This document shows, in pieces, positions 61,301 to 64,000 of a DNA stretch of 64,000 nt; positions within the stretch are counted from its first letter, which is position 1, and every line of letters begins with the position of its first letter. The position numbers were made by a program. The stretch lies in the NCBI RefSeq assembly GCF_057098645.1, contig NZ_CM169472.1; one strand, given 5' to 3'.

Positions 61301-64000
61301 GGTAAATCATGACAAATCCTTTATCAATGACTCTTTGCAGACCTTTCCAGGATTAATTCTTTTTTTCTTGCCCTGGATTCGTCTGCCATTTCCTGATTTT
61401 TATATTTATATACTCTAAATAATTCGAGTTGCAGGAAGGCGACAAGCGAGTGAATCGCCAGGAGCTTACATAAGTAAGTGACTGGGGTGAACGAACGCAG
61501 TCGCAGTTCATGCAACTTGAAGTATGACGAGTATAAATGGAATGGTACATGGGCAAATATATTCGTCCCTTATCCGATGCGGTATTTACCATCGCATCTG
61601 ATGACCTGTGGATCGAGAGTTTAGCGATCCAACAATTACACACCACGGCAAATTTACCCAACATGCAGCGCGTAGTGGGGATGCCAGATTTACACCCCGG
61701 ACGCGGCTACCCGATTGGCGCAGCGTTCTTCTCCGCAGGCCGTTTTTACCCAGCACTGGTCGGCAATGATATCGGCTGTGGCATGGCGCTATGGCAAACA
61801 GATATTCTCGCTCGCAAATACAACGCCGATAAGTTTGAAAAGCGATTATCAGCTTTGGATGACGTTGCTGAAGAAAGCTGGCTGGAGGAAAACCTGCCGT
61901 CAGCATTTGCACAGCATCCGTGGCGCAGCTCGCTTGGCTCTATCGGTGGCGGCAATCATTTCGCTGAACTGCAACAAGTTGATCAAATCATCAACGCTGA
62001 ACTGTTTGCACTGGCAGGTCTGGATGCGCAGCATCTGCAACTGCTGGTTCATAGCGGCTCGAGGGGGGGTGCCCCTATTAAGTTGTCAAGCATGTTATGA
62101 CGCCTGCGGGGTATAAAAAGTCCCGTCGCGCATCATGGCGAACAGAACGTCGCAGCGTCGTCTCGCCAGGGCGATAAGCGCCTGATTGTGTCGTTTTCCC
62201 TGACTCATTTTGCGGGTGTAGTAAGCCCTGGAGAGCGGATCCCTGAGCGCGGCGAAGGCCGACAGGAACAACGCCCGTTTGAGAGCTTTATTACCCCGTC
62301 GCGAGGGATGCTCACCGCGTATTGACGAGCCGGATCGCCGAGTTACCGGCGCAAGGCCAGCATAAGCAGCGAGATGTGCGGCAGAGGCGAAGGCGCGGCA
62401 GGCGACCTCGGTGAGGAGTCTGGCTGCGGTCCTGACACCGACTCCGGGCATACTGGTCAGGACCGGGTAAAGAGGGTGAGCAAGAACTCGCTGTTCTACC
62501 TCAAGCACCACCTCGTCTCTTTGCTTACGCAGCGTGATGAGCTGGAGTGCCAGACGTGGCAGTACTACGGCAGCGGCATTCGTGCCGGGAACGACGACGG
62601 TTTGTTCGGCCAGTGCCTGAGCTATGTCTGCTGCAAGGCGTTTACCCAGACGAGGCGCAAGTTTGCAGAGCTGGGCTGCCAGCTTCTTCTCACCCAGCGA
62701 AGCGAGTTTTTCTGGTGAGGGATATCGCTGGAGAAGATCGAGTACCGCCGGGTGATCAAGTCTCGGACCGAGAACGCGCTCCAGTGCCGGATGTATCTGG
62801 GTCAGAAGGCCGCGGATACGGTTGCTGGCCTGCGTTGTCTGTGCGGCAAGATCATCATCGAAGCCGCAGAGCATGGAGAGTTCGGCGATTTGCTCGTCAG
62901 CCAGTTTCAGCGTGCGTAGCGCGTGAGGCAGGGTACGGGCAGCTTCGGCAATGATGGCAGCGTCACGAGCATCAGTTTTAGCTTCACCGGCGTGTAAGTC
63001 GGCTATGCGGCGCATGGCCAGTCCAGGGAGGTATCCGACAAGGACTCCTTCTGAGCGGGCAACGGCGACAGGTAACGCACCGATGGTAGCTGGCTGATCA
63101 ACAACCAGCAGTATCTGACCATGTTGTTTCAGGTCAGATATTAGCGACCTGAGTTTGTTTTCGTCGTTGGGTAATGCTTTATCGAACAGGCGTTTACCTG
63201 AACGATTAATGGCTACAGCGTGATGCGTATCTTTACCGACATCAACGCCGATAAAGACCTGGACGGATTCGTAATCGCTGGATTCGGTCATTCTGTCTCC
63301 CTTGTATATGGGTTAACCAGATAACCACGGGGAGCAGGTACCGGCATCCACGTTACAGACGGTCCCGGCAAAAGTGCCTGACCTGACCCCTATTAGCGGT
63401 TACCAGCGCCCCACCAGACCCGGTGACATCACCCCCCGGATCATGGACGACTGGGGGCAGTAATCATGCCGGGTCTGGCTGGCTAACACCCCATTATAAG
63501 GGGTACGAATAAAGTAACGGGGCAGTCTATTTTACAGCGGCATATTGCCTCGTTTTCGCATCATGGTTTGCCTGAAGGCAGTGACGATGCGCTACGGTAC
63601 ATTGCGGAACATGACGATGCGCTGGCATTTGCGCGTATTAATAGCCAGATGATCGCTTTGCGCATAATGCAACAGGTTAAGGCCACGGGAAGTCCGGTTC
63701 TGGATGTGGCGCATAACTTTGTTAGCGCGTGTCAAATCGGCGATCAACAGGGCTGGTTGCATCGTAAAGGTGCCACGCCGGATGACAACGGTCTGGTGAT
63801 TATTCCCGGTTCACGCGGTGATTACTCCTGGCTTGTACAGCCTGTTGCGAACGAAAAAACGCTCCACTCGCTGGCGCATGGGGCAGGGCGTAAATGGGGG
63901 CGCACCGAGTGTAAAGGGCGTCTGGCAGCGAAATACACGGCGACGCAACTCTCGCGTACTGAACTTGGCAGTCGGGTAATTTGTCGCGATAAACAACTCA

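Follow-up and report, generated by a model that had tools for sequence, protein, structure and literature searches.

A copy of ISEc20 in the poly-G tract of an Escherichia coli rtcB2 gene and the candidate bridge RNA in its left end

What has split an RNA ligase gene of Escherichia coli in two, and why at this particular nucleotide? The question is raised by a stretch of 64 000 nucleotides (nt) from RefSeq assembly GCF_057098645.1, contig NZ_CM169472.1 (hereinafter, the window), near the right edge of which rtcB2, a paralogue of the RNA ligase gene rtcB that is associated with the release factor homologue gene prfH, is interrupted by ISEc20, an insertion sequence (IS) of the IS110 family. It is highly probable that a single copy of ISEc20 inserted, in the minus-strand orientation, into a poly-G tract of rtcB2, and we propose that the insertion was guided by an RNA encoded in the element and led to the loss of a ribosome repair function. 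As found, the locus matters little: neither the IS nor the accessory gene is new, the case is an ordinary one, and the ISEc20-split rtcB2 is already known, being present in the public RefSeq annotation. Its wider, modest use is as part of a clean natural data set on the target rule of the ISEc20/IS110-proper clade, the members of which, whether from E. coli or from Actinobacteria, combine C-run targets with shared ends and loops. The poly-C target rule, the covariation of the donor loop and the hypervariable rtcB2 tract that are described here are incremental to the published work on bridge recombinases.

The split rtcB2 gene and the limits of the insertion

The features of the split gene and of the element, in window coordinates, are the following.

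61549..62065, plus strand: rtcB2 5′ fragment (pseudogene), the N-terminal half up to HSGSR; Pfam RtcB, annotation by the NCBI Prokaryotic Genome Annotation Pipeline (PGAP), 100% identity to the intact gene of strain C325
62063..62069, no strand: G7 run at the left junction, the remainder of the poly-G target tract
62066..63517, minus strand: ISEc20 insertion relative to the C325 allele, 1452 bp, from the empty-site comparison
62070..63517, minus strand: IS-unique sequence, 1448 bp, TTAC...GGGGCA in the IS orientation
62070..62094, minus strand: right end (RE), ~25-29 nt, with a -35-like TTGACA at 62084-62089 and a subterminal ATAGGGGCA that is copied in the module 2 loop (see below)
62095..63291, minus strand: ISEc20 transposase/recombinase, 398 amino acids, intact; PF01548 and PF02371, NF033542
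63292..63517, minus strand: left end (LE), 226 nt, non-coding, upstream of the transposase gene, candidate bridge RNA; begins TTACTTT (-10-like TACTTT)
63518..64000, plus strand: rtcB2 3′ fragment (pseudogene), starting with CGGGGCAG and encoding GWLHRKGATP and HSLAHGAGRKW; Pfam RtcB, PGAP

The open reading frame (ORF) that begins at 61537 or 61549 is RtcB-like up to LLVHSGSRG and then runs into foreign sequence, and RtcB sequence resumes behind the insert (GWLHRKGATP...HSLAHGAGRKW) and runs off the end of the window, as a preliminary description of this DNA had it. Of the two possible starts, the one proposed there, 61537, is an in-frame upstream ATG that remains as an alternative, and 61549 is favoured by PGAP and by the NCBIfam alignment. 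The membership of both flanking fragments in the RtcB family is borne out by matches to Pfam PF01139, with E=1.4e-28 for 61537-62065 (profile positions 1-70) and E=2.2e-24 for 63502-63999 (profile positions 223-380). The uninterrupted protein of C325, which is identical to the IS-spliced window protein over the part within the window, exceeds the curated cutoffs of both TIGR03073 release_rtcB (603.5 bits against 271.8) and NF007153 (625.3 bits against 407). The rtcB2 stop codon lies 137 nt past the window edge and is followed by prfH, in the place where the preliminary description expected it; in a genome that is 100% identical over the locus, an intact prfH overlaps this stop codon, its product scores 327.5 bits on TIGR03072, and pepD comes next, with dinB and yafP located upstream of rtcB2. 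On these scores and this gene order (dinB-yafP-rtcB2-prfH-pepD, in an O145:H28-related lineage of E. coli), the interrupted gene is identified as the PrfH-associated RtcB paralogue, rtcB2.

The nearest relatives of the uninterrupted protein with solved structures are canonical RtcB ligases (E ~1e-25 to 1e-27), and in the alignment with these, the insertion falls at the conserved H(S/T)GSRGxG motif. The metal-binding role of the N-terminal half and the role of the HGAGR histidine are established RtcB biochemistry. The NDIGCG, GGGNHF, HSGSR and HGAGR motifs are all present, divided by the IS over the two fragments, with the first three in the N-terminal piece and the HGAGR histidine motif in the C-terminal one. 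Because the IS cuts the N-terminal motifs off from HGAGR, rtcB2 is a pseudogene, predicted to be inactive, that, as interrupted, cannot encode an active ligase.

The boundaries of the insertion were set base by base against the uninterrupted 1137-nt gene of C325, the flanks of which match the window without a single difference, 1287 nt to the left and 482 nt to the right of the insertion. The empty site of C325 reads CTCGAGGG^CGGGGCAG (here and below, a caret marks a junction or an insertion point), and the occupied site in the window reads, with the insert in parentheses, CTCGAGGG(GGGGTGCCCC...AAAGTAA)CGGGGCAG, that is, an insert without positional ambiguity and without duplication, with the right junction GTAA^CGGGGCAG at 63517/63518. 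The preliminary description had delimited the foreign segment at 62066-63500, ~1.43 kb, of which the left end is exact and the right end is 17 bp short. Excision at those limits leaves 17 nt of the IS in place and yields ...HSGSRGVRIK followed by a stop, so the frame is lost and not, as had been expected, restored; with the corrected end, removal of 62066-63517 keeps the frame open to the window edge and gives a product identical to the C325 RtcB2. Of the AGGGG(T) motifs that had been reported at both junctions, only the left one marks a junction, being part of the G7 run; the right one, AAGGGGT (63498-63504), belongs to the element itself, in which it forms one arm of a hairpin. The underlying idea, a G-rich insertion target, holds in the form of the poly-G tract.

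The minus-strand IS110-type transposase that had been recognized in the insert is a complete ORF with a DEDD/RuvC-like N-terminal domain (PF01548, 6e-49) and a C-terminal Tnp/Transposase_20 domain (PF02371, 7e-22), and it scores 238.6 bits, against a cutoff of 140, on the NCBIfam model NF033542, ‘IS110 family RNA-guided transposase'. An intein- or intron-like element was ruled out by the complete IS, its own recombinase on the opposite strand and the stop codons in the rtcB frame. No terminal inverted repeats were found, with none of the 15 inverted-repeat pairs connecting the two termini of the element. The name ISEc20 rests on the PGAP product label and on 99.6-99.9% identity to labelled genomic copies; judged against these PGAP-labelled copies, it is a typical copy with no difference seen from ISEc20/ISSfl4 (the ISfinder names).

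The 2.7-kb stretch that contains the split gene has counterparts of 100% identity in E. coli Z1323HEC0422 and in Z1323HEC0399, and of 99.9% identity in more than 20 O145:H28 genomes, and the interrupted arrangement is present in 34 of the 5,426 complete E. coli genomes. In RefSeq, PGAP annotates the 5′ piece in a 100%-identical genome (locus L001) as ‘RNA ligase RtcB family protein' with a missing C-terminus and the 3′ piece under the same name with a missing N-terminus, with an ‘IS110-like element ISEc20 family transposase' between them. Apart from the length of the G-run, O145 RM9872 (L109) differs from the window over the 2.7 kb solely by an A/G single-nucleotide polymorphism (SNP) at 62507, in the transposase gene.

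In the RtcB2-PrfH system, PrfH releases the stalled ribosome, RtcB2 religates the 16S ribosomal RNA (rRNA) cut by colicin E3, and the pair protects against this colicin (PMC9223846, PMC9304027). The operon of E. coli K-12 has been lost in another way, by truncation (PMC9223846). The locus in the window holds the same gene pair in the same chromosomal position, yafP-rtcB2-prfH-pepD, as the operon of E. coli ATCC 25922, whereas its rtcB2 is, apparently, inactivated by the IS and belongs to an allele class that encodes HSGSRG(x)G with a slippage-prone poly-G tract. The intact prfH would be left without its upstream partner, with both transcriptional and translational coupling probably lost, and the expected phenotype would be the absence of RtcB2-PrfH repair of colicin-E3-cleaved 16S rRNA. 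The prediction, then, is that O145:H28-related strains with this allele cannot repair the cleaved rRNA via this pathway.

The poly-G target and the status of the C325 allele

The site of insertion is not an arbitrary position in rtcB2. In the orientation of the window, all of the ~8 distinct E. coli ISEc20 sites examined show CGGG(G) beside the LE, and those with an intact RE junction have at least one G beside the RE, with the exception of the copy in pSE11-3. The ~50 relatives with both ends resolved begin with (C)CCCCG^TTACT and end with TTGAC(A/G)...ATAGGG(G/A)CAC^CCCCC. The uninterrupted rtcB2 alleles of the same class (L003 and L102-L108 among them; the site corresponds to 62060-62069/63518-63525) contain G7, G8, G9, G5TG4, G6TG4, G5TTG4, GGGCGGGG and, in Z1323PEC0008, a run of ~63 G, and several of the poly-G alleles are annotated as frameshifted. 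This variation in length could come from contingency-like slippage or from homopolymer sequencing error; a slippage-prone tract that frameshifts the gene in many genomes is, in itself, a modestly useful observation. The common rtcB2 allele reads CGTGGTTTAGGG (HSGSRGLGQ) and has no G run, the poly-G tract being confined to one allele class. That class encodes HSGSRG(x)G with a G7-G9 or G6TG4 tract and is therefore a recurrent target, and these comparisons identify the ISEc20 target as the hypervariable poly-G tract inside HSGSRG of one rtcB2 allele class.

Recurrence is apparent in rtcB2 itself, where the IS occupies an identical insertion point, and is oriented the same way, in two allele backgrounds that differ by 2.7%. 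SNPs are located 5, 22 and 37 nt from the junction, and the divergence is 2-4% on either side. The simplest reading of this pattern is independent insertion in the two backgrounds.

The exact target and the crossover core are less straightforward. The net insertion amounts to +1452 in the window compared with C325, to +1451 in O145:H28 compared with C325, and to +1451 at a prophage tail-fibre site compared with its own G7 empty site. The junction run has seven G residues (G7) in the window, as it has in Z1323HEC0422 and Z1323HEC0399, and six (G6) in O145:H28 genomes (L109, O145 RM9872). The G7 run at 62063-62069 is possibly the recombination core; a CC core with an IS-borne G fits the G7 tail-fibre and the G8/G9 rtcB2 targets and is a misfit if C325 represents the target. 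Fixed models with a core of 1, 2, 4 or 5 nt, with a CAC core or with replacement of one base were rejected, none of them fitting the comparisons of rtcB with C325, of rtcB with PEC408 and of the tail-fibre site together. At the L007 site, a core could not be read from an empty/occupied pair, the empty sites being only non-isogenic and poly-G-variable, and at the zinc-ribbon (L009) and odhB/lpdA (L010) sites, either an intact empty counterpart is lacking or the right flank is rearranged. Inference at the nucleotide level is limited by homopolymer instability or sequencing error.

Much depends on how the C325 allele is viewed. C325 is the only member of its narrow lineage that lacks the IS (99.9% identity over the adjacent 24 kb) and the only uninterrupted genome found to carry GGGCGGGG, which encodes HSGSRAGQ; its lone C sits exactly at the position of the IS-borne base. 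The C325 allele could be either the pre-insertion allele or an excision footprint. It is possible, if doubtful, that a C325-type allele (CTCGAGGG^CGGGGCAG) was the true target and that a 1452-bp element (TTAC...CACCCC) entered CCCCG^CC without a shared core, rather than a C-run with a C or CC core: the flanks of C325 are identical to the window, removal of exactly 62066-63517 gives the C325 allele with no ambiguity, and the two genomes belong to the same narrow lineage. However, this allele is present in a single uninterrupted genome and is one codon shorter than the other intact alleles examined, except for the in-frame G8 of KSC207. The divergent IS-bearing background would need the same rare allele, whereas its closest uninterrupted relatives have pure G7, G8 or G9. 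The G6 junction of O145:H28, which yields 1451 bp, does not fit, and the lone C may itself be the excision footprint. The empty targets at the tail-fibre, L007 and lpdA sites are pure G runs, and the C beside the LE is therefore IS-borne at those sites.

Insertion into a pure poly-G tract, in two backgrounds independently, can also be set against a single insertion that was moved to the second rtcB2 background by homologous recombination or gene conversion, in which case the shared site would be uninformative on specificity. This is improbable. Only 2 positions distinguish the two IS copies, and E. coli recombines frequently. However, such near-identity is uninformative for an element whose copies throughout E. 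coli share 99.6-99.9% identity, the flanks of the two backgrounds remain distinct as far as the junction, and the targeting of C-runs has independent support from ~8 E. coli and ~50 family sites.

A more far-reaching idea to which we give little credence is that the rtcB2 poly-G tract serves as a reversible switch of colicin-E3 repair, turned off by slippage (G7/G8/G9) and by RNA-guided insertion of ISEc20, with C325 being a natural revertant that arose by imprecise excision. If this were the case, the C325 footprint GGG-C-GGGG (Gly-x-Gly changed to Ala-Gly), with its IS-derived base, would be natural evidence of footprint-leaving excision by a bridge recombinase.

The left end and its predicted bridge RNA

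If the element chooses poly-C/poly-G tracts, the proposed source of the choice is the LE. The elements of the IS110 group have been described as consisting of a long LE, a short RE, an LE-encoded bridge RNA and a promoter that is reconstituted when the ends are joined (Durrant et al. 2024). In the supplement of the same study, the ISEc20/ISSfl4 cluster has an entry for a bridge RNA encoded in the LE, and the Supplementary Tables assign ISEc20/ISSfl4 and IS110 of Streptomyces coelicolor to one recombinase cluster, so that a bridge RNA for this cluster has already been predicted in bulk by earlier work.

The structure of the LE was examined in an alignment of 42 non-identical LE sequences, using RNAalifold and pair counting, with shuffles (n=500) and slid-partner controls. 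The single LE sequence folds with z=-3.3, and the alignment supports two stem/internal-loop modules in which 19 of the 50 pairs show compensatory changes. In the alignment, 97.8% of cells are paired, compared with 36-52% when the partners are slid, and none of the 500 shuffles reached the observed scores. Each outer stem contributes seven pairs with compensatory changes, and the G-U pairs in the stems indicate that the RNA is that of the minus (transposase) strand. The two modules are as follows.

63413..63479, minus strand: module 1, candidate target-binding loop; outer stem CCAGACCCGG/CCGGGUCUGG, helix 1 with compensatory changes in 7/15 pairs
63330..63411, minus strand: module 2, candidate donor-binding loop; helix 3 with compensatory changes in 7/11 pairs

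Module 2 appears to read the ends of the element itself. Its 5′ strand, AUAGGGGU (63386-63393), has the same sense as ATAGGGGC of the RE. The AUAGGG(G/A) of the loop varies in step with ATAGGG(G/A)CAC at the RE, the G/A state being in agreement in all 42 elements, across two phyla. The 3′ strand, GUAACGUG (63349-63356), is invariant and is the reverse complement of CAC+GTTAC (CACGTTAC), which is what results when the end of the RE is joined to a G and the start of the LE. A CAC^GTTAC junction of this kind was found to the right of two copies, in pSE11-3 (L015) and in a Cupriavidus genome (L044). Only when the ends are joined do the -35 box of the RE, TTGACA, and the -10 box of the LE, TACTTT, come to lie 17-18 nt apart.

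The inner strands of module 1, ..ACUGCCCCCAG.. (63451-63461) and ..CCGGGGGGUG.. (63430-63439), are invariant and contain C5 and G6 runs (ACUGCCCCC and CCGGGGGGUG). At ~60 sites, the C-run flanks agree with the C5 and G6UG strands, and the PEC408-type allele (G6TG4), which in the IS orientation reads ACTGCCCC-A-CCCCCC, matches the module 1 strands over 8+8 nt. Neither the strands nor the targets vary, and both are low-complexity sequences, so the target match is a matter of complementarity, with no covariation by which to test it.

The LE region thus matches, as a prediction, an IS621-type bridge RNA. In common with IS621 (Durrant et al. 2024; Hiraizumi et al. 2024), ISEc20 encodes a DEDD + Tnp recombinase, lacks terminal inverted repeats and combines a long LE with a short RE. 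As in IS621, there is an LE-encoded RNA region with two stem/internal-loop modules (predicted in the case of ISEc20), and the joining of the ends unites the -35 box of the RE with the -10 box of the LE. The geometry of the left and right donor guides (LDG and RDG) is also that of IS621, the 5′ strand of module 2 being sense to the left donor (the RE end) and the 3′ strand complementing the right donor (the LE start). The target of ISEc20, unlike the REP-derived (repetitive extragenic palindromic) 11-mer with a CT core that is used by IS621, is a homopolymeric C-run, and the integrated ISEc20 copy lacks the identical flanking dinucleotide; an integrated copy without the identical flanking core expected from IS621 is modestly useful to have on record. 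In ISEc20, unlike IS621, the two strands of the target loop do not vary between phyla and are mutually complementary. The recombinases differ in size, with 398 amino acids in ISEc20 and 326 amino acids in IS621.

A mechanism along the following lines can be proposed. The 226-nt LE would be transcribed into a two-module bridge RNA, in which module 2 would read the joined ends of ISEc20 and module 1, with its invariant C5 and G6 strands, would read C-runs; the recombinase would then put a circular copy of ISEc20 into poly-C/poly-G tracts.

Several observations weigh against this interpretation. The net insertion size differs by 1 nt among sites and strains (1452 versus 1451), and the junctions share no identical core (..CCCCG at the LE, CA+C6-7 at the RE), unlike the IS621 paradigm. 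An Rfam scan of 61000-64000 detected no bridge-RNA family, only a sub-threshold V_AS5 match and a chance match to STnc350. The guide strands of module 1 are not only invariant but also mutually complementary, so that covariation cannot tell a guide loop from an ordinary stem, and the LDG-like strand of module 2 ends 2-4 nt before the RE terminus. The literature search for ISEc20 returned passing mentions only, and no description of a poly-C target preference of ISEc20 was found in the searchable literature.

The least probable of the alternatives is that the LE structure is a 5′ untranslated region (UTR) element that affects the translation or stability of the transposase mRNA, or else a DNA-level recombination site, with the choice of target encoded in the protein: the invariant C5/G6 strands can indeed pair with each other (RNAfold, RNAalifold), and small RNAs have been proposed to regulate the expression of the IS110-family transposase of ISPpu9 (as cited in PMC11208160), but the loop tracks the G/A state of the distant RE in 42/42 elements and an invariant 8-mer complements the joined ends, both of which are predicted by the bridge-RNA model and neither by a UTR switch, the G-U pairs in the stems point to an RNA of this strand, and NF033542 together with the supplement of Durrant et al. 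puts the element among the bridge-RNA encoders.

Spread of ISEc20 and the surroundings of the locus

Copies of the ISEc20 family with 99.6-99.9% identity were found in 1,119 E. coli genomes, with up to 9 copies per genome, and 80 relatives (L017-L096) with 72-82% amino-acid identity come from Burkholderiales and Actinobacteria. The ISEc20-type element is strongly conserved over Gammaproteobacteria, Betaproteobacteria and Actinobacteria, and neither its termini nor its invariant loop strands differ between these groups, which would imply either that the element has recently spread by horizontal transfer or that a fixed poly-C target is under strong constraint. Many E. coli genomes contain solo LE remnants of 43-82 nt (...CCCCATTATAAGGGGTACGAATAAAGTAA^CGGGGC) beside prophage Rz (i-spanin) genes (hits H80-H85), and the LE remnant in L004 (NZ_CP116115.1) is truncated by an IS3-family element. 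Where a C-run would be expected beyond the right end ...GGGGCAC, the copies L015 (pSE11-3) and L044 (Cupriavidus laharis) have GTTAC immediately, that is, a G and the LE start; this could be the remnant of a tandem copy or of a circle junction, or the result of insertion into a donor-like site. The whole window contains no second ISEc20 copy and no other run of at least 8 G/C.

Between yafP and rtcB2, at 61408-61531 on the plus strand, there is a 124-nt imperfect palindrome with the ERIC/IRU consensus (GTGAATC.CCAGGAGCTTACATAAGTAAGTGACTGGGGTGA). Because its Rfam V_AS5 score, 48.5 bits, is below the gathering score of 96, it is best considered a repeat element and not a Vibrio small RNA. Further upstream, at 59727-61231, dinB is directly followed by yafP, with overlapping stop and start codons, and the yafN-yafO toxin-antitoxin pair, which separates these two genes in K-12, is missing. 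Flag-2 remnants (an flhA pseudogene and lafU) and a hicAB pair are annotated upstream in the identical genome. Positions 36000-60000 of the window contain an IS3 copy and an rRNA operon, and ~5% of this region, apparently the IS3 copy, is missing in the sister strain C325 and in some O145 genomes, which therefore points to additional IS activity nearby in the strain of the window.

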